A stretch of DNA of 32,000 nucleotides from Chlamydiota bacterium (GTDB lineage: Bacteria; Auribacterota; JACPWU01), in the NCBI GenBank assembly GCA_016196885.1, contig JACPWU010000038.1, positions 1 through 32,000 on the forward strand, written 5' to 3'. The translations under genes were made by a program, and so were the position numbers. Positions 3,471 through 26,166 of this stretch are shown here, piece after piece. The notes below the pieces were generated by a model. That model did not search any database. It was not told the origin of the DNA and saw only the letters and a list, made by a program, of their open reading frames with translations. The number at the start of each line of letters is the position of its first letter. Within the stretch, counting starts at the first letter, position 1.

Positions 3471-3857
3471 ATGAAAAAAATTATTTCTACTGCTCATGCC
3501 CCCATTCCAGTCGGACCTTATTCTCAAGGAATACAGACGAATTCGCTTTTGTTTGTCTCTGGCCAAATTCCAATGGATCCTGTTTCAGGCAAGATGGTTT
3601 TGGGGTCTATTCAAGATCAGGTGGAGAGGGTATTGGAAAATGTGAAGGCGATTGTAGAAGCAGCAGGTGGAAATTTATCAAATGTCGTGAAGACCACGAT
3701 TTTTCTAAAGGATTTGAAAAATTTTGAAGCTGTTAATCAGGTGTATTCAGAATATTTTGGGGAATCAAAACCGGCTCGAAGTACAGTAGAGGTGAGTCAA
3801 CTTCCCAAGGGGGCTGAAATGGAGATAGAGGCGATAGCGGTTTTGGAAAAACAATAA
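3471..3857 (+). CDS. ridA: RidA/YjgF family reactive enamine/imine deaminase
   Basis: 128 aa with APIPVGPYSQG, FVSGQIP and the C-terminal PARSTVEV..LPKGAEMEIEAIA pattern. Confidence 0.85.
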   Translation: MKKIISTAHAPIPVGPYSQGIQTNSLLFVSGQIPMDPVSGKMVLGSIQDQVERVLENVKAIVEAAGGNLSNVVKTTIFLKDLKNFEAVNQVYSEYFGESKPARSTVEVSQLPKGAEMEIEAIAVLEKQ

Positions 3858-3863
3858 AAACAG

Positions 3864-3950
3864 CTGTGAGTGGTGAGGGGTGAGTCGTGAGTAAAAAAAT
3901 AATACTTTTAAAACTCACCCCTCACCGCTCACCTTTCACCCCTCACGACT
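3864..3950. repeat. Hairpin built from inverted heptamer arrays: (NNGTGAG)x4 facing (NCTCACC)x5
   Basis: GTGAGTGGTGAGGGGTGAGT (3866-3885) pairs with ACTCACCCCTCACCGCTCAC (3913-3932), 19 Watson-Crick pairs plus one G-T. Both arms have 7-nt periodicity. It starts 7 nt after the ridA stop and has no U-tract. Confidence 0.8.
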
Positions 3951-4788: not shown

Positions 4789-5780
4789 TCAAAAAAGGCG
4801 TGAGTTATTTTTCCAATCGCTATCTGTCTCATTTCAAAGAAGATCTAGTCGAAATTCAGTCTTTCCCTTTTCATTATATTCTTCATACCTTCAGCGAAAA
4901 TGATTTGGCTTATTATCGGGGAACTTTGCAAAAGATGATTGCGCTTTCCAAGGAGGCGGGGCTCCAGGTGTATGTGGATCCTTGGGGGGTGGGAGGGGTT
5001 TTTGGCGGCGAGGCCTTTTCGAGGTTTGTAGCACAGCATCCTGAAGAATGTCAGGTGCTCTCTTCGGGACGTAGGCTCGCGGCGGCATGTCCGGCTCGCC
5101 CTCGCTTTTTAGATTTTATGAAGGGGTGGCTGGAAGCAGTTTCTCAATTAAAATCCGATGTTGTTTTTTGGGATGAGCCCCATTTTTATTTTGAAAATAA
5201 CTTGACCTCAAGAAACTCAAGTGAAGATTGGGCCTGCTGTTGTGATTTTTGTCGACATGAATTTAAAAAGCAGTGGGGCCATGAAATGGGTCCCGAGCTA
5301 ACCGCAGAGATTCTTACATTTCGGGAGGAGTGTCTCATTTCATTTTTGAGGAGTCTTTGCAGTCGAGCCCATCAATTGGGTTTTAAAAATGCGGTTTGTC
5401 TGGTTCCCAAATTCGAAAAAATTTTAGGAATAGAGCATTGGGAGAAAGTAGCTTCTTTACCAGAAGTAGACATTTTGAGCGCTGATCCTTATGCCATCCT
5501 TTTGAATGTCCAGGTGCGAGATTTTGTGAGAGAAATCACTCAACGTGTGACAGGCTTGGCGCAAAAATTTGGAAAAGAATCCGAGATTTGGGTCCAGGCC
5601 TTTCGAATCCCGAAAGGCCGCGAAGAAGAGGTGACGTGGGCCATTCAAGAAGCCTCTTCCGGGAAGCCCTCTCGTTTGGCGGTGTGGTCTCATCGGGGGA
5701 CGGAGGCGATGTCTGAGCTTTCATGCGATCGTCCAGAGCTGGTTTGGGAAAAGGTGAGAGAAGGATTTCATGGTCGCTAG
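4785..5780 (+). CDS. Hypothetical protein, possibly a clan GH-A-like TIM-barrel hydrolase
   Basis: 331 aa, with the start overlapping the upstream stop (ATGA). VVFWDEPHF resembles the NEP acid/base strand of clan-A glycosidases, and EIWVQAF is a possible nucleophile strand. The assignment is weak. Confidence 0.4.
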   Translation: MIKKGVSYFSNRYLSHFKEDLVEIQSFPFHYILHTFSENDLAYYRGTLQKMIALSKEAGLQVYVDPWGVGGVFGGEAFSRFVAQHPEECQVLSSGRRLAAACPARPRFLDFMKGWLEAVSQLKSDVVFWDEPHFYFENNLTSRNSSEDWACCCDFCRHEFKKQWGHEMGPELTAEILTFREECLISFLRSLCSRAHQLGFKNAVCLVPKFEKILGIEHWEKVASLPEVDILSADPYAILLNVQVRDFVREITQRVTGLAQKFGKESEIWVQAFRIPKGREEEVTWAIQEASSGKPSRLAVWSHRGTEAMSELSCDRPELVWEKVREGFHGR

Positions 5781-8533: not shown

Positions 8534-8729
8534 TAATAACAGTTTAGCACCCATTCTCCCTCAAGGGAACCGAGGCGGTTTTTGATGGGGCGTTGAAGTC
8601 GTTCGCGAGCATGGTACCTCGACGAATAGTCGAGGTGAGCGAACGACTTCGCCGAGCTCGTCCCGATCGCTGGTCGGGGCGAGCGTCCCCATCAAAAATT
8701 GCCTCGGTTCCCGTAGCTAAACTATTACG
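8534..8729. repeat. ~196-nt branched imperfect palindrome (possible structured RNA or palindromic repeat element)
   Basis: Nested pairings: AGTTTAGC 8541-8548 with GCTAAACT 8716-8723; GGGAACCGAGGC 8565-8576 with GCCTCGGTTCCC 8701-8712; GGTTTTTGATGGGG 8577-8590 with CCCCATCAAAAATT 8687-8700 (12/14); GAAGTCGTTCGC 8595-8606 with GCGAACGACTTC 8639-8650. There is an apical hairpin CCTCGAC/GTCGAGG (8617-8635) and a side hairpin GCTCGTCCCGA/TCGGGGCGAGC (8656-8684). Confidence 0.7.
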
Positions 8730-13124: not shown

Positions 13125-13406
13125 ATGGCTAAAAAGATATCGCTAGAGGACCGCCTGTTTCTCGTTCAAAGGAATTTTGGCAAGAAAAGTCATATCACGA
13201 TCGATCAAGAGGCGTTTCGAAAAGATCCCGTGAAGCCCATTCTTTTTATTTGCCCTGCTAGAGTTTTCCTTCTCAATGAATCTTCCGGGGAGTGTGTGAT
13301 CAATCACGAAAATTGCCTCGAATGTGGGACCTGCCAAGTCGCAAGTCGCTATGTGAAGTGGACGAATCCCAGCAGCGGGTTTGGGGTGACTTATAAGTAC
13401 AGTTAG
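13125..13406 (+). CDS. fixX: Ferredoxin-like protein FixX
   Basis: 93 aa with CxxCxxC (NCLECGTCQVA) and the typical position downstream of fixC. Confidence 0.8.
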   Translation: MAKKISLEDRLFLVQRNFGKKSHITIDQEAFRKDPVKPILFICPARVFLLNESSGECVINHENCLECGTCQVASRYVKWTNPSSGFGVTYKYS

Positions 13407-13499
13407 AAGACAGAATTGAGAATTCAGAATTCAGAAGACAGAAGAAAACATACCTTACCTATTCTGTCTTCTGAATTCTGAATTCTCAATTCTGTCTTC
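13406..13499. terminator. Perfect 38-bp hairpin made of inverted heptamer arrays (GAAKWCA units), between convergent fixX and exbD
   Basis: 13406-13443 is the exact reverse complement of 13462-13499, with an 18-nt loop. The TTCTNNN array continues to 13524 (9 units), into the exbD 3' coding end. Confidence 0.85.
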
Positions 13500-13913
13500 T
13501 CAATTCTGAATTCTAGCTTCTGGCTCTGTCAACGCTATAACCCGCTTAAACCCTGCCAGTTGAATTTGATCCATGACCTCAATCGCCAGCCCATAGGCGG
13601 CCTTTTTATCGGCTTCCAAAGTGACCATGGGATCCTTCAAACGTGACTTTTCCATTTTAAGTTTTCCGGGAAGTTGAGTAAGAGCAATTTCATCATGGTT
13701 GAGAAAAATTTTTCCATCGGCCGTAATACTGAGCGTGATTTTCTCTTCTTCAATTTTTTGAGATTGATGGCCATGGGGAAGTTCAATTTGAACCGCCGGT
13801 TTTTCGACGAACGTGGTTGTGACCAGAAGGAAAATGATAATGGTAAACATCAAATCAATCAGAGAAGTGATTTGAATGCTCGGTTTTCCTTTAGCACGCG
13901 TTTGAAATTTCAT
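13500..13913 (-). CDS. exbD: Biopolymer transport protein ExbD/TolR
   Basis: 137 aa with an N-terminal TM helix carrying the SLIDLMFTIIIFLL motif, downstream of an ExbB-like gene. Confidence 0.85.
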   Translation of the reverse strand: MKFQTRAKGKPSIQITSLIDLMFTIIIFLLVTTTFVEKPAVQIELPHGHQSQKIEEEKITLSITADGKIFLNHDEIALTQLPGKLKMEKSRLKDPMVTLEADKKAAYGLAIEVMDQIQLAGFKRVIALTEPEARIQN

Positions 13914-16924: not shown

Positions 16925-18004
16925 ATGCTACCTTGGCTAGGGCTGGTCATTACGGTATTGATTTTTGCTGTGGGTGTACTCCTCTTCATTCCCTTTTGGA
17001 GAAAAGAAGCCCATTCCAGAGGGGCTTCGTTTGAAAAAACTTTAGAAAGTTTGCGTTCAGAAGTCCGTCTCAATTTGGATGGGAATACGCAGCTCATTCA
17101 ACAACAGCTTCTGGGCATTTTAAAACAAGTGGGCGATCAACTTTATCAGGCGCGGCAGGATTTAGGAGGGAGGCTTGAAGGGACGGTTCGTGTGGTGGGG
17201 GAATTGCAAAATAAATTAGGAAAGCTCGAAGAGTCTAATCGCCAAGTTTATGAAGTGGGACGTGACATTGCCCGGCTTCAAGAGATTTTAAGGGCGCCCA
17301 AATTGAGAGGAGGTTTGGGTGAATTCTTTTTAGGGGACCTTTTAAGCCAGATCATTCCTCCCGAATATTTTTCTCTTCAATATGGTTTTCGCTCAGGGGT
17401 CAAAGTGGATGCGGTCATTCGCCTGGGCGGAAAACAGTTGGTTCCTGTAGATTCAAAATTTCCTTTGGAAAATTTCTTAAAGATTCTCAGTGCCTCGGGT
17501 GACTTAGATAAAAGGTCTTATCGCAGGCAATTTTTGACGGATGTAAAGAAACACATTGATGCCATTGCCTCCAAATACATTTTGCCAGATGAGGGGACTT
17601 TTGATTTTGCGCTCATGTATATCCCGGCGGAAAATGTTTATTATGAAACCATTATCAAAGATGAAGGCGATTCCGAGCATTCCCTCTTTCAATATGCCTT
17701 GGCGAAAAGGGTGGTTCCGGTCTCACCCAATAGTTTTTATGCGTACTTGCAGGTCATTTTGCTTGGGCTTAAGGGAATGAAAATCGAAGAAAGGGCCTTG
17801 GAAACCATTGGTCAATTGAGGCGGCTCTCGGATGAATTTTCAAAATTTAGAGAGGATTTTGATCGTGTAGGAGCCCATTTATCCAATGCAAAAGGCAGCT
17901 TCGAAAAGGCCGAGAAACGTCTCGGCAAATTCGGTGAGAGGCTTTCCGATGTGAGTGCGCTAGAACCTGAGAAGGCAAAGGCATTGGCGCAAGAAGTTGT
18001 TTAG
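16925..18004 (+). CDS. rmuC: DNA recombination protein RmuC
   Basis: N-terminal TM helix, a coiled-coil region, then VDSKFPLENF and MYIPAENVYYE motifs. I moved the start from the ORF-track 16787 to ATG 16925, because the upstream part overlaps the EAL gene. Confidence 0.85.
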   Translation: MLPWLGLVITVLIFAVGVLLFIPFWRKEAHSRGASFEKTLESLRSEVRLNLDGNTQLIQQQLLGILKQVGDQLYQARQDLGGRLEGTVRVVGELQNKLGKLEESNRQVYEVGRDIARLQEILRAPKLRGGLGEFFLGDLLSQIIPPEYFSLQYGFRSGVKVDAVIRLGGKQLVPVDSKFPLENFLKILSASGDLDKRSYRRQFLTDVKKHIDAIASKYILPDEGTFDFALMYIPAENVYYETIIKDEGDSEHSLFQYALAKRVVPVSPNSFYAYLQVILLGLKGMKIEERALETIGQLRRLSDEFSKFREDFDRVGAHLSNAKGSFEKAEKRLGKFGERLSDVSALEPEKAKALAQEVV

Positions 18005-18366
18005 TGAACTGACTTGTGATTGAAAAGTATATCCTTCAAAACGTGTTCAACTTCTCTCAATGTGCCCTTTCCTAAAGATCCCAACTTCCTTTTGATAAGG
18101 GAATGATGTAAAGAGTGTATTTTATCTACGATGATAGCGGATGGTTTTTTAAAACCAGAAGGGTGATAATCAGGATGTGAAGTATCTATTCTGATTAAGA
18201 AAGATCCCTCTCTTCTGATATTAGAGGTTACGAGGCAAAGGATCACATCCTTTTCTTGAAGGTTGTAGGATGTTGTGGAAAGTACCACGGCAGGGCGGAC
18301 CTTTTGAGAGGTAAGATCGGTGTAAGGAAAAACAGTCAGAACAATATCTCCCTGAGAAAGATTCAT
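18001..18366 (-). CDS. PemK/MazF-family toxin (type II TA endoribonuclease)
   Basis: GDIVLTVFPYTD...KVRPAVVLS...ILCLVTSN pattern. The start overlaps the upstream stop (ATGA). Confidence 0.8.
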   Translation of the reverse strand: MNLSQGDIVLTVFPYTDLTSQKVRPAVVLSTTSYNLQEKDVILCLVTSNIRREGSFLIRIDTSHPDYHPSGFKKPSAIIVDKIHSLHHSLIKRKLGSLGKGTLREVEHVLKDILFNHKSVH

Positions 18367-18608
18367 ACCGGATAGCCATCATCAAGAGTGTAAATATCTT
18401 CTTCCTTGTCGTGGAGGAAGGAATGCGAAGGATCATTTTTTGAAATCCATTCTAAGATTTCTTCGTCGGTTGTTTCAAAATCTTGATCTGTAAAATAGAA
18501 GAAGGTCTCATTGGGGATTGTTCCTAGCTCTTGATAGCTTGGCTTAGAAATTTCATTACTTCCCAGAACGAAGAAAAGGAGTGAATTTCCAGTCCGACTC
18601 TTATTCAT
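18363..18608 (-). CDS. Putative acidic antitoxin partner of the MazF-like toxin
   Basis: 81 aa with a D/E-rich C-terminal half (TDQDFETTDEEILEW...DKEEDIYTLDDG). It is ATGA-coupled on both sides. The assignment rests on position and composition only. Confidence 0.5.
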   Translation of the reverse strand: MNKSRTGNSLLFFVLGSNEISKPSYQELGTIPNETFFYFTDQDFETTDEEILEWISKNDPSHSFLHDKEEDIYTLDDGYPV

Positions 18609-19697: not shown

Positions 19698-19742
19698 GTT
19701 TTGTGATACAGTTCTATGAATAAAGCGTATAGTATGAACTGT

Positions 19743-19932
19743 GATGTTGTATTTAAAAGTGTGTCCTTTTATTGATGCGGGTGGCCCGACTGGGGGTCCC
19801 CCGCTGATCGCCAGCAGGTCGAGACTTGAAAATTACTCTTCAAGAACCAAATCGAGACCGATGCCGTCAGCGGGGGTGAGGAGGGACAGGACCCGCCTCC
19901 TCTTAAAAGGGCACACTTTTAAATACACGATC
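19743..19932 (+). mobile_element. Non-autonomous TIR element (MITE-like), copy 1, 190 bp
   Basis: Termini GATGTTGTATTTAAAAGTGTGTCCTTTT ... AAAAGGGCACACTTTTAAATACACGATC. Flanked by the direct repeat TGAACTGT (19735-19742 and 19933-19940). A second copy lies at 24797-24989. Confidence 0.8.
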
Positions 19933-19986
19933 TGAACTGTACGCTGAACGCTAATCGCTGTACGCTTTTTCATGGAGATTAGAAAC

Positions 19987-21803: not shown

Positions 21804-23105
21804 GTGAAGAAGTCCCTTTTTTTTACTATTCTCTTTGTCCTTTTCATTTCCATTTCATCCCTTGCCTCCGTTGCCTATCGCATTGATGTGGAGGGTCCCA
21901 TCAACGATGTTTTGGCTGATTTTGTTGTTCATTCCATTCAAGAAGCGCAAGATCATCAGGCCCCTTTTGTGATTTTGAGGCTCAGCACACCGGGTGGTTT
22001 TGATACCGCCATGCGAAAAATTATTTCAGAGATTCTCGGCAGTCGTATTCCTGTCATTGTGTATGTTGGCCCCGCGGGAGCCCGTGCTGCCTCTGCCGGT
22101 TTTTTTATTTTGCTGGCTGGCGATGTAGCTGTCATGGCCTCTGGAACCAACACCGGTTCGGCCCATCCCCTCTTGGCATTGGGTGGGATTTACCCGATCG
22201 AAAAGGGAAAGGGGATGAAAACGCTCTCGGAAAAAGTGATGAACGATGCCAGGGCCTATTTACGGGGGATTGCCGAAAAGCGCGGAAGAAATGTAGAATG
22301 GGCCGAAAAGGGAATCACGGAAAGCAAATCTTACACAGAGAAAGAGGCCCTGGAGGGAAAACTCATTGAGCTCGTCGTCAAAGACGAAAAGGAGTTGATG
22401 AAGGTTTTAAGAGGTCGTGAGGTGACCCGGTTTTCAAAAGAGAAAGTGACTTTACCTGTAGGTTCTGTCTCGCTCAAAGTTTGCGAAATGACTGGGCGGC
22501 AAAAAATTCTTTTGGCCATCAGTGATCCCAATCTGGCCCTTTTGCTGGGACTTGTCGGGCTTTTGCTGATTTATTTTGAATTCAGTAACCCCGGTCTGAT
22601 TGCCCCGGCGGTGCTCGGGGCCCTTTGTCTTTTGGTCTCCATGATTGGCTTTTCGATTCTCCCCATCAACTTTGTGGGTGCCCTCTTGATGATTTTGGCG
22701 CTGGGCCTTTTCATTGCAGAAATTAAAGTCCAGGGCTTTGGCATTTTGGGGATAGGCGGTATTATTTCGCTTCTCGTCGGGGCCTTGATTTTGGTAGATG
22801 CACCCGAGAGCAATCTTGGAATCAGACCTGTGGTCGCTGTGGCAGTCGTTCTTTCCTTTGGTGCCATTCTGATGCTTTTGGTTCGATTGACCGTAAAAAG
22901 TTTACACAGGAAAGTCCAGACAGGTCTTGCTGGAATGATTGGGCTCACAGGCGTAGCCCACAGCGCCATTGGGTTGGAGGGCCAAGTCCATGTCCGGGGA
23001 GAATATTGGAATGCCATTTCTTCGAGCCCGATTCCTGAAGGAAAAAAAGTGCGCGTGGTGAAGGTGGAAAATCTGAAGGTGGTGGTGGAGGAAGTCAAAA
23101 ACTAA
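21804..23105 (+). CDS. NfeD-family membrane-bound ClpP-class serine protease
   Basis: 433 aa with a GTG start behind GGGAGG. It has a signal/anchor, a ClpP-like domain, multiple TM helices and a C-terminal OB-like domain (VRGEYWNA...VRVVKVENLKVVV). Partner gene of SPFH. Confidence 0.85.
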   Translation: MKKSLFFTILFVLFISISSLASVAYRIDVEGPINDVLADFVVHSIQEAQDHQAPFVILRLSTPGGFDTAMRKIISEILGSRIPVIVYVGPAGARAASAGFFILLAGDVAVMASGTNTGSAHPLLALGGIYPIEKGKGMKTLSEKVMNDARAYLRGIAEKRGRNVEWAEKGITESKSYTEKEALEGKLIELVVKDEKELMKVLRGREVTRFSKEKVTLPVGSVSLKVCEMTGRQKILLAISDPNLALLLGLVGLLLIYFEFSNPGLIAPAVLGALCLLVSMIGFSILPINFVGALLMILALGLFIAEIKVQGFGILGIGGIISLLVGALILVDAPESNLGIRPVVAVAVVLSFGAILMLLVRLTVKSLHRKVQTGLAGMIGLTGVAHSAIGLEGQVHVRGEYWNAISSSPIPEGKKVRVVKVENLKVVVEEVKN

Positions 23106-23111
23106 AAAAAA

Positions 23112-23200
23112 GTTCAAAGGTTTAAAGGTTCAAAAGTTCAAAGGAAAAAGCTCCAAAGTGCATCAACCTTTGAACCTTTGAACTTTTGGACCTTTAAACC
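23112..23200. repeat. Hairpin of GTTYAAAR octamer arrays between nfeD and the SPFH gene
   Basis: GTTTAAAGGTTCAAAAGTTCAAAGG (23120-23144) pairs 24/25 with the complement within 23167-23200. Both arms have 8-nt periodicity. Confidence 0.75.
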
Positions 23201-23217
23201 TTCGTAAAGGAGGAACT

Positions 23218-23979
23218 ATGCTTGCCGCTTATCCATTTACTATTTTTATCGGTGTGATTATTTTTTATTTGATGAGCTCTCTTAAGATTTTAAATGAATA
23301 CGAACGGGGCGTCATTTTTAGGCTAGGACGGGTGTTGGGAGAGGCGAAGGGGCCGGGCCTCATTTTTGTGTTTTGGCCCATTGATCGGATGGTGCGGGTT
23401 TCCTTAAGAACCATCACCTTTGACGTTCCTCCCCAGGATATTATTACGAAAGACAATGTCTCTGTGAAAGTAAATGCCGTTGCCTATTTCAGGGTGGTGA
23501 ATCCGGTTCGGGCGATCATTGACGTTGAAAGTTTTCTATATGCGACTTCTCAGTTAGCCCAGACGACCTTGAGATCGGTGTTGGGAGAAGTAGAGTTGGA
23601 CGATTTGCTCAGCAAAAGAGAAACGCTGAATGTAAAATTGCAAAATATTTTGGATACACATACGGACCCTTGGGGGATTAAGGTGTCTTTGGTTGAAGTG
23701 AAACAAGTAGATTTACCTCCCGAAATGGTTCGGGCTATTTCTAAGCAGGCTGAGGCTGAACGGGAAAAGCGGGCCAAAATTATTCATGCTGAAGGAGAAT
23801 TTCAAGCGGCTGAAAAACTTTATCAAGCCTCTCGCGTGATTGCTCAAGAACCTGCTGCGATTCAGCTACGTTATTTACAGACTTTGACGGAGATTGGGGT
23901 TGAGAAAAATACCACCATTATTTTCCCACTGCCGATCAATATTCTGGAAAACTTTATTAAGAAAAATTCAAAAGTTTAA
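23218..23979 (+). CDS. SPFH/Band 7 (stomatin-like) protein
   Basis: [28 protein letters not shown] and the Glu/Ala-rich [16 protein letters not shown] region. Confidence 0.9.
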
Positions 23980-24041
23980 AGGTTCAAAGAATGAGCACCC
24001 ATGAACCTTTGAACTTTTGAACCTTGGAACCTTTGAACTTT
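23967..24041. repeat. Second hairpin of the same GTTCAAAG octamer family, overlapping the SPFH stop
   Basis: TTCAAAAGTTTAAAGGTTC (23967-23985) pairs 18/19 with GAACCTTTGAACTTTTGAA (24003-24021). The right array continues to 24041. Confidence 0.7.
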
Positions 24042-24055
24042 CATAAGGAGGTCTT

Positions 24056-24676: not shown

Positions 24677-24796
24677 GAATTTCAAAGTTGGCATGCTAAG
24701 CTGAACGAAGAAGAGGAATAAGATCCCTCGCCCGCCTTTCCGAGCGAGAGCGAGGCTGGATCCCGCCGACGTTGCGTCGGGATCCTCGGGATGACT

Positions 24797-24989
24797 GATC
24801 CAGTATTTAAAAGTGTGTCCTTTGGAAAGGTGGCGGGTCCTGCCGCCCAACCACCCCATCAACGGCATCGGTCTCGATGAGGGATCGAGATGTATAGCTG
24901 ATGCGAATGACTCGACCTGCTGGCGCTTGATGGGGACCCCGTTGGGCGTCACCCGCATGAATAAAGGACACACTTTTAAATACATTATC
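24797..24989 (-). mobile_element. Non-autonomous TIR element (MITE-like), copy 2, 193 bp, inverted relative to copy 1
   Basis: The reverse complement aligns end to end with 19743-19932. Flanked by the direct repeat GGATGACT (24789-24796 and 24990-24997). Confidence 0.8.
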
Positions 24990-25088
24990 GGATGACTGTT
25001 GCGCAGTCATTTTCCTTGACTTTTATCTTTATTTTTACTATACCAAACTCGTGTAGGAGAGTATGCTAAAGAAAGGAGGTGAGCTCGA

Positions 25089-25443: not shown

Positions 25444-26166
25444 TTATTGTTTAAACAACCCCTGAATTTTTGTGAGCGACAATTCCTGAAAACTTTTGAG
25501 CACCAGGTCTGACTCTTTTAATTGCGACTTCGAATACGTGTGGGCCAAGGCAAGCGATTTCATCTGGGCCTTGTGAGTTCCTCTCACCCCCGCAATAGAA
25601 TCTTCGATGACCAAACACTCCTGAGGAAGGATTTTTTTGAAGCGGTTTAATTTCTTAAGGGCTAATAAATAACTTTCCGGATCGGGCTTGCTTTTTTTTG
25701 TGTCTTCGGCAGCAATAATCACTTTGAATTTTTTGAGAATCCCCGCCCTTTTCAAAATCCAGCCTATCTCACTTCCCAAAGCAGCCGAGGCAATGGCAAG
25801 CGGGTATTTTTTGGAGAGAATGTTCACCCATTTTTTCACGCCAGCAAAGAGCGTGAGGTGTTTTTCAATATAGGCCTCATAGGCATGCGCTTTCCTCTCT
25901 ACCAGCTTTCTGATTTTTGACCTTGAAATCGGATGTCCCTCTTTGTTTAGAATTTTTTCAAAACAATTTTTATCATCAAAGGCCAAATAATGGCTGTAAT
26001 ACTCTTGGGCGCTTAACCGGATTCCTTCCTCTTTCAAAATTTTCTGAAACATTTTTAAGTGAATCGGTTCATCGTTCACAATGACGCCGTTGAAGTCGAA
26101 GATGATGGCTTTTAATGAAAAAAGTCGTGAGTCGTGAGTCGTGAGTCGTGAGTGTTGAGTTGTCAT
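25444..26166 (-). CDS. HAD-superfamily hydrolase (beta-phosphoglucomutase-like subfamily IA)
   Basis: Motif I IIFDFNGV (the second Asp is Asn), KSKPDPE, and VIEDSIAGVRG. The first ~15 codons are encoded by a 7-nt tandem repeat. Confidence 0.75.
   Translation of the reverse strand: MTTQHSRLTTHDSRLFSLKAIIFDFNGVIVNDEPIHLKMFQKILKEEGIRLSAQEYYSHYLAFDDKNCFEKILNKEGHPISRSKIRKLVERKAHAYEAYIEKHLTLFAGVKKWVNILSKKYPLAIASAALGSEIGWILKRAGILKKFKVIIAAEDTKKSKPDPESYLLALKKLNRFKKILPQECLVIEDSIAGVRGTHKAQMKSLALAHTYSKSQLKESDLVLKSFQELSLTKIQGLFKQ
26124..26165. repeat. Heptanucleotide tandem repeat (GTCGTGA)x4 plus two degenerate units
   Basis: Perfect units at 26124-26151 and degenerate units GTGTTGA, GTTGTCA to 26165. 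It shares the exact 13-mer GTGAGTCGTGAGT with the 3864-3950 hairpin and has no complementary arm nearby. Confidence 0.85.

Follow-up and report, generated by a model that had tools for sequence, protein, structure and literature searches.

A family of miniature inverted-repeat transposable elements from an uncultured Chlamydiota bacterium, with a long hairpin whose helices covary between copies

A 32,000-nucleotide stretch of the genome of an uncultured Chlamydiota bacterium (contig JACPWU010000038.1, positions 1 to 32,000, hereafter the window) contains two complete copies, designated chl1 and chl2, of a MITE (miniature inverted-repeat transposable element). The element represents a new MITE family, from a phylum (Chlamydiae) for which a full-text literature search returned no description of a MITE. 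Its interior is an imperfect GC-rich palindrome, and the helices formed by this palindrome have diverged between the copies by matched changes on both arms. We think that the MITE probably, though far from certainly, keeps its hairpin by selection on the element's own propagation and not for a function in the host or as a host RNA gene. A first-pass annotation of the window, whose quoted strings and coordinates are all present in the sequence as given, had proposed a selected fold, of RNA or single-stranded DNA (ssDNA), carried on a mobile element.

Results

Ends and target-site duplications of the two complete copies

chl1 (190 bp, ends GAT...ATC) lies at positions 19743 to 19932 of the window on the plus strand, and chl2 (193 bp) lies in the inverse orientation at positions 24797 to 24989 on the minus strand. 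In searches with nhmmer, chl1 scored 162.7 bits on the plus strand versus 30.0 bits on the minus strand, and chl2 scored 158.5 bits on the minus strand versus 23.4 bits on the plus strand. In agreement with the first-pass annotation, the reverse complement of chl2 aligns with chl1 from end to end, the invariant blocks being ATGCGGGTG, GGGGTCCCC, GCCAGCAGGTCGAG, ATCGAGACCGATGCCGT, and CAGGACCCGCC. Both copies are bounded by terminal inverted repeats of ~24 bp (GATnnTGTATTTAAAAGTGTGTCC) and have the extended ends GATnnTGTATTT...AAATACnnGATC in common. The left repeat of chl1 (GATGTTGTATTTAAAAGTGTGTCCTTTTA, 19743 to 19771) is 29 nt long and 90% complementary to the right repeat (19904 to 19932), and chl2 contains perfect inverted repeats of 21 nt (24803 to 24823 and 24963 to 24983). 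Perfect 8-bp duplications of the target site are found at homologous boundaries of the two copies: the sequence TGAACTGT abuts both ends of chl1 (19735 to 19742 and 19933 to 19940), and GGATGACT flanks chl2 on the low-coordinate side (24789 to 24796) and on the high-coordinate side (24990 to 24997).

When both copies were translated in six frames (12 reading frames) and compared with 5.8 billion protein clusters, nothing matched at E≤10, and chl1 and chl2 differ by indels of 1, 1, and 5 nt that shift the frame between the copies; the element is therefore non-coding. With terminal inverted repeats, a duplication of fixed length, a small size, no coding capacity, and dispersed copies, it is a MITE, and the inverted repeats and perfect duplications confirm that the fold is carried on a mobile element. 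The ends together with the 8-bp duplication are the footprint of a DDE-type transposase of the cut-and-paste or copy-in kind acting in trans. Among the transposon families that generate 8-bp duplications, IS256, ISL3, and IS1595 would be candidates for its source. BLAST searches of plasmids with the element and with its end gave either nothing or noise at E=8, and matches to the inverted repeat were at chance level. Words similar to the RYYYAAC/GTTRRRY motifs of integron attC sites (GCCCAAC and GTTGGGC) occur in chl2 and are absent from chl1, and this candidate was dropped.

Fold and divergence of chl1 and chl2

Each of the two copies folds into a single nested rod of ~190 nt, with z values between −7.4 and −8.2 for RNA of both strands (chl1, −7.75 as RNA and −7.2 as ssDNA; chl2, −7.8 as RNA and about −8.6 as ssDNA). 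The whole element thus forms one nested rod, as had been predicted, and not two end hairpins. At its base, GCGGGT (19777 to 19782, within the invariant ATGCGGGTG) pairs with ACCCGC (19891 to 19896, within the invariant CAGGACCCGCC). A variable helix is formed in chl1 by CCCCCGCTGA (19798 to 19807) and TCAGCGGGGG (19867 to 19876) and in chl2 by CCCCATCAA (24854 to 24862) and TTGATGGGG (24927 to 24935), all given for the plus strand. Both strings of each pair are located where the first-pass annotation had placed them, and the helix contains compensated pairs. The proposed pairing of CGCCCAAC (24844 to 24851) with GTTGGGCG (24941 to 24948) in chl2 was present in the folds of this copy, where it forms an outer variable helix. 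The inner internal loop has the conserved non-palindromic block GCCAGCAGGTCGAG (19810 to 19823, identical in chl1 and chl2) on its 5′ side and the conserved block ATCGAGACCGATGCCGT (19851 to 19867, 17 of 17 nt identical) on its 3′ side. The variable apex of chl1 is the hairpin CTTGAA...TTCAAG (19824 to 19844), which is part of the minimum-free-energy fold.

The identity between the two copies is a mosaic. It amounts to 94 to 100% in the conserved blocks, including GCCAGCAGGTCGAG and ATCGAGACCGATGCCGT, and to 100% in the basal helix GCGGGT/ACCCGC, whereas the variable helices are only 40 to 57% identical and nevertheless retain their pairing. At the apex, the identity is 27% and the sequences are effectively unrelated. 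The termini are nearly identical, and the overall difference is about 25 to 30%.

We projected chl2 onto the minimum-free-energy fold of chl1 and compared the outcome with a null model of randomly placed substitutions. Seven pairs had changed on both sides and were still paired (null mean, 2.4; P=0.005), and 13 pairs were broken, mostly in the replaced apex, compared to a null mean of 25.9 (P<5e-5). In addition, a length difference of 1 nt is matched on both arms of the variable helix, CCCCCGCTGA/TCAGCGGGGG of chl1 being longer than CCCCATCAA/TTGATGGGG of chl2. The segments GAGGAGG/CCTCCTC of chl1 and GGTGG/CCACC of chl2 around ACCCGC had been suggested to allow a pseudoknot or an alternative structure; this local hairpin was at chance level (P values per copy, 0.06 to 0.76), and the suggestion was not supported.

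A search of the whole window against Rfam 15 at gathering thresholds gave no match; the first-pass annotation had not recognised the element as a signal recognition particle RNA, 6S RNA, tmRNA, RNase P, or a riboswitch or ribozyme of a known class. At E≤10, Rfam searches of both elements yielded only noise from microRNA and small nucleolar RNA families (E, 0.14 to 1.6), and scans of the elements for promoter and terminator consensus sequences found none. The energies of the plus and minus strands differ by 0.1 to 7 kcal/mol, with a sign that changes among the copies. Arm mismatches of the types G:T and A:C are almost absent from the intact copies (1:1, 0:2, and 1:1) and hence give no sign of which strand folds.

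Additional copies in this genome and in a relative

DNA beyond the window was reached via Logan contigs (~5.5 kb upstream and ~4.7 kb downstream), and neighbouring and orthologous DNA was gathered with the window proteins as queries. A third copy, chl3, was found in Logan contig L012 (8525 to 8655), ~4 kb past the window. It comprises only the core without the inverted repeats, begins 4 nt after the leuS stop codon, carries GCCAGCAGGCGGAG in place of the block GCCAGCAGGTCGAG, and retains part of the right spacer (AACCTC versus CACCTT). The leuS-comEA gap that holds chl3 spans 155 nt, compared to 7 nt in three relatives with 73 to 77% LeuS identity (loci L014, L015, and L021), and chl3 is therefore probably an insertion. 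At the sites of chl1 and chl2, the relatives were too distant to provide an empty site that could be aligned. In the sister Chlamydiota metagenome-assembled genome (MAG) GCA_016178055.1, the same gap holds a different palindromic element (GGCTGCTGAAAAAGG ... CCTTTTTGAGCAGCC; L016, 12487 to 12649). Elements appear to land in this gap repeatedly.

The related genome GCA_964640155.1 (locus L015/L019; 76% LeuS identity) contains three shorter copies, all of which lack the block GCCAGCAGGTCGAG. Inverted repeats are present in the intact copy r15a, which forms a near-perfect rod (z, −11.7); of a target-site duplication it shows only an offset 6-nt repeat, CTTATT. In r15b one end has decayed, and r15c has its inverted repeats only as remnants, which adjoin the core together with the spacer. 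A covariance model added a weak fourth copy, r15d (E=0.025), in which TGGGT/ACCCA replaces GCGGGT/ACCCGC, a C:G to T:A change, and in which the basal signature TGGGTGGC...GCCAGGACCCA is accompanied by different short flanking repeats. In an independent assembly of this related genome, a contig ends within r15b (Logan contig L020 from SRR8893623, positions 1 to 56), which is consistent with a multi-copy repeat in that genome. The copy density amounts to three in ~42 kb of the source contig and three (plus the weak one) in ~30 kb of GCA_964640155.1; in three other relatives, no copies were found in ~60 kb. Both chl1 and r15b are located upstream of ilvD, chl1 in the same sense as the gene and r15b in the opposite sense, and a third relative has no copy at this position. 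This argues that the two copies are independent insertions.

The first-pass annotation had called for more homologs and a statistical test of covariation. Six copies, including those of the related genome, were aligned (alignment A3) and share 21 pairs, nine of which had changed on both sides, with 91% of the cells paired. None of 500 column shuffles reached the observed covariation values, and the fraction of paired cells fell to 37 to 53% when the partners were slid by 1 to 3 columns. The basal helix (columns 41 to 46 with 166 to 171) is nearly invariant in the six copies and has 97% of its cells paired. In helix 4, the variable helix of CCCCCGCTGA, five of nine pairs had changed on both sides, as had four of six pairs in helices 2 and 3, which form the outer variable helix. 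The inner variable helix, represented by CCCCCGCTGA/TCAGCGGGGG in chl1 and CCCCATCAA/TTGATGGGG in chl2, is formed by CCCCATTGA/TCAATGGGG in r15a and by CCCCATCGA/TCGATGGGG in r15b; in chl3 it is similar to that of r15a with one mismatch (aligned 3′ form of both, TCAATG.GGG). Compensatory substitutions in excess of chance were thus obtained both for the pair of window copies and for the larger alignment.

These additional copies also bear on a cargo-RNA alternative, in which the GC-rich core would act as a functional RNA of one strand and would be selected for its effect, after transcription, on the host or the element. Such an RNA could be a ribozyme of unknown type, a small RNA, a processing site, or a cis-regulatory element. 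The presence, beside covarying helices, of two non-palindromic blocks (14 and 17 nt) with 94 to 100% identity is a typical signature of structured RNA with functional loops, all copies are intergenic and near gene starts or ends, and the profile strongly separates the two orientations. However, neither an Rfam match, even at E≤10, nor a promoter or terminator consensus was found, no strand shows an excess of G:U over A:C or a consistent energy difference, and the copies upstream of ilvD point in either direction relative to this gene. Moreover, the intact copy r15a lacks the conserved blocks, and old copies lose the structure. We therefore consider a cargo RNA distinctly unlikely. Of the selected fold proposed initially, the covariation of the helices beyond chance was retained; a discrete RNA of one strand is not indicated, given the equal folding of both strands.

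The copies without inverted repeats raise another alternative, namely, that the core (GCGGGTG...CAGGACCCGC) is an independent hairpin of the REPIN type, mobilised as ssDNA and nested in an unrelated MITE with inverted repeats; selection on the hairpin would then stem from transposition as a single strand. In favour of this idea, chl3 has a core without repeats only 4 nt past the leuS stop codon, r15d carries TGGGTGGC...GCCAGGACCCA in the context of other short repeats, and the genome contains other GC-rich palindromic intergenic elements. Furthermore, a Bacillales MITE that shares the word TTTAAAAGTGTG has a core that is also found without repeats in Paenibacillus (see below). On the other hand, r15c retains remnants of the inverted repeats and spacer beside its core, so that the copies without repeats are better read as decayed MITEs, and chl3 likewise keeps part of the right spacer. 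The match to r15d is weak, the window revealed neither a Y1 nor a RAYT transposase, and a GTAG/CGTC head is lacking. A nested REPIN-like hairpin is thus very unlikely in our view. It also appears quite improbable that the core (GYGGGTG(R)C ... CAGGACCCRC plus GCCAGCAGGTCGAG and ATCGAGACCGATGCCGT) is a self-standing structured module, whether as RNA or ssDNA with a catalytic or protein-binding role or as a separate hairpin element, that occurs in this Chlamydiota clade in several terminal contexts (within the inverted-repeat MITE, free of its repeats, and with other termini). If this were true, the element would be a cargo-carrying MITE and would not simply have arisen from an insertion sequence by deletion.

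Intact and decayed copies

The intact copies have z values of −7.2 to −12.3 as RNA or DNA of both strands, whereas the rod fold of the decayed copies chl3, r15b, and r15c is weak (z, −1.8 to −3.5). Mismatches of the transition type made up 8/17, 6/15, and 10/20 of the arm mismatches in the decayed copies, but only 2/17, 2/19, and 2/10 in the intact ones. As the rod has disappeared from copies whose termini have decayed, the fold is not maintained at the insertion sites in the way expected of an RNA useful to the host. The contrast fits a hairpin that is kept in lineages still transposing and that decays after insertion. The earlier view that structure is under selection and that the element is not simply a decaying dead MITE would therefore apply to the transposing lineages, but not to the decayed copies, which lose the rod.

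The intact ends and perfect duplications of chl1 and chl2 indicate that these are young insertions. As they nevertheless differ by about 25 to 30%, we infer that they diverged in separate active lineages and that each of these lineages kept the rod. The palindrome is older than the split between chl1 and chl2, because arm asymmetries and loops are common to both copies; the common asymmetric loops also rule out independent fold-back births as the source of the pattern. Since the palindrome pre-dates the divergence, the matched changes required either selection or copying from one arm to the other.

In the case of copying in a long quasipalindrome, intrastrand template switching during replication or mismatch correction in an extruded hairpin would mimic compensation, and the fold would have no function. 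We regard this explanation as fairly unlikely, although several properties agree with it. The compensated pairs are all of the Watson-Crick type on both strands, with hardly any G:T or A:C intermediates in the intact copies, as predicted for copying in one step. The fold is symmetric between the strands, the 1-nt length change is matched on both arms (CCCCCGCTGA/TCAGCGGGGG versus CCCCATCAA/TTGATGGGG), and the strong divergence of the variable helices (40 to 57% identity) is reached more easily by paired changes made in one step. Copying should, however, erase the asymmetric loops and bulges, which persist in chl1, chl2, and partly in chl3. Furthermore, a replication mechanism should be indifferent to transposition competence, but the decayed copies gather uncorrected transition mismatches and lose the rod.

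Genomic setting of the copies

The window is a chromosomal segment that maps to contig JACOUD010000018.1 of GCA_016178005.1 (5508 to 37507), and ten of its proteins are identical to the NCBI MAG proteins MBI1882972 and following. Its genes have housekeeping functions and include thiL, tsaB, alr, ilvD, nfeD, the slipin gene, lpxA, and leuS. chl1 is located in the intergenic region between a LemA gene and ilvD. At a distance of 1.1 kb from chl1, a gene for a toxin of the MazF/PemK type is present on the minus strand (18001 to 18366), and the small open reading frame (ORF) upstream of and overlapping it (18363 to 18608) probably encodes its antitoxin. chl2 is located between two small unannotated ORFs. 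GC-rich hairpins at positions 24722 to 24790, for example, GGATCCCGCCGACG TTG CGTCGGGATCC, adjoin this copy, whose target site is at their edge.

Another GC-rich palindromic intergenic element is found at positions 8565 to 8712. Its terminal arms of 26 nt (GGGAACCGAGGCGGTTTTTGATGGGG and its complement) surround two inner hairpins, resulting in a Y-shaped fold (z, −12.45). The window has a single copy of this element, which the MITE profile does not detect. The gene for slipin (band-7) is flanked on both sides by arrays of 8-nt units similar to TTCAAAGG (23097 to 23215 and 23959 to 24054), which are mutually inverted (36 nt, 94% complementary). A short-period array at 13401 to 13525 consists of 7-nt units and has perfect inverted arms of 39 nt, and GTGAGTC arrays are located at 3853 to 3892 and 26114 to 26153.

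Discussion

Level of selection

Selection on the element's own propagation, the reading we favour, would mean that self-complementarity is under purifying selection at this level. The most likely benefit would be in mobilisation: a duplex of 190 bp would be too stiff for looping, and a hairpin or cruciform could juxtapose both ends, along with the subterminal GCGGGT motifs, for the transposase. As a second possible benefit, a tightly folded read-through transcript might lessen the harm of insertions beside genes.

Several points weigh against this reading. In the ~250 kb reached (window plus fetched loci), we found neither an autonomous element nor a transposase with matching ends. No DDE transposase is known to need a hairpin substrate, so that the proposed benefit is one we infer. 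The copies reached number just six or seven, from two genomes, and are related by descent, so that the shuffle statistics overstate their independence; moreover, three intact copies are compared with three decayed ones. Finally, the conservation of the inner blocks GCCAGCAGGTCGAG and ATCGAGACCGATGCCGT is not explained; as the intact short copy r15a does without these blocks, they are unnecessary for the rod and presumably for mobility.

The present results add to the phylum a well-delimited MITE family with defined ends, duplication size, and covariance model. They also provide a natural contrast in which young, transposition-competent copies hold a long hairpin by matched changes and old copies lose it, which is the type of evidence needed to argue that the self-complementarity of MITEs is selected for mobility and is not a by-product. 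Should the parent transposase be found, the natural stem and its compensatory variants would represent ready mutants for studying the role of a hairpin or cruciform in the synapsis of very short transposons. For annotation, the results call for caution, as strong covariation in a DNA palindrome is on its own no evidence for an RNA gene.

Comparison with other repeat families

In a collection of 185,579 species genomes that does not include the source genome, the conserved inner blocks used as a pattern gave no matches. The pattern of paired inverted repeats detected a family in a Bacillales MAG and one gammaproteobacterial locus in the same collection. As BLAST revealed no homology between the cores of the Bacillales and Chlamydiota families, these matches were kept out of the Chlamydiota family. 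Two further searches gave matches that were rejected. In JGI metagenomes, a 20-nt word of the inverted repeat had one match (L005, Ga0187771_10001819, 4796 to 4819; 23 nt exact), which was judged to be due to chance; it falls within the part of an rpoA-like gene that encodes the N terminus (peptide ...EKDTLLNTYGKF...) and has no second repeat. In viral contigs, the inverted-repeat-pair pattern detected AT-rich phage regions that carry TGTGGAAA repeats; the three regions are nearly identical to one another and unrelated to the MITE.

The Bacillales family has copies in the uncultured MAG CAYYCV01 (L001, 5343 to 5525; L002, 2821 to 3001 and 6404 to 6586; L004, 2073 to 2253). It resembles the Chlamydiota family in its length of ~182 bp, its GC-rich rod (z, about −12) with 10 of 63 pairs compensated, and its inverted repeats TTTAAAAGTGTGGTGAAAAA, which contain the 12-nt word TTTAAAAGTGTG also present in the Chlamydiota repeats. 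It differs in that its target is probably TTAA or TA and not an 8-bp duplication. Furthermore, it shows an excess of G:T mismatches on one strand (23 versus 9 A:C) and conserved G.U pairs, both absent from the Chlamydiota family, which hints at a strand-specific fold in the Bacillales elements. A relative of the Bacillales core without inverted repeats is found in Paenibacillus cellulosilyticus (NZ_CP054613.1, 1.11 Mb; L011, 2968 to 3126); it conserves GGAGAAACG..AGTGGTCGCCTTTGTCCCCGGATT and is located 60 nt upstream of a gene for an ABC transporter permease. Rfam searches with the Bacillales and Paenibacillus elements gave only noise.

Among described families, the Correia elements of Neisseria and the enterobacterial ERIC elements are intergenic imperfect palindromes of 100 to 160 bp with inverted repeats (general review, PMC3184786), and their read-through transcripts form long hairpins that affect mRNA processing. 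They differ from the Chlamydiota element in the duplication of TA and in their termini, and none of our searches revealed sequence similarity to them. REPINs are hairpin-forming doublets of REP sequences in which compensatory changes are common and for which it was argued that selection acts on the doublet as a unit (PMC3116915). With them the Chlamydiota element shares conserved ends, a variable hairpin-forming spacer, and an argument for selection on the replicative element and not on the host. However, REPINs have neither target-site duplications nor long inverted repeats of the transposon type and are linked to a Y1 (RAYT) transposase that works on single-stranded DNA, whereas the Chlamydiota element has 8-bp duplications and 24-bp inverted repeats and lacks the GTAG/CGTC head, and no Y1 transposase domain was detected in the ORFs of the window. 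The presence of inverted repeats and duplications and the single nested rod also distinguish it from elements derived from IS200/IS605.

A close parallel by description is bcr1, a MITE-like repeat of ~155 bp in the Bacillus cereus group, in which compensatory changes keep the hairpin and some copies have lost stability (PMC3184786). Both are small, non-coding, dispersed intergenic repeats with flanking direct repeats and a long predicted hairpin or cruciform. Compared at this level, they differ in that bcr1 has direct repeats of 5 bp and is transcribed, whereas the Chlamydiota element, from another phylum, has an 8-bp duplication and inverted repeats of ~24 bp. Compensatory changes that preserve a hairpin are thus already known for MITE-like repeats of bacteria from bcr1 and the REPINs (PMC3184786, PMC3116915).

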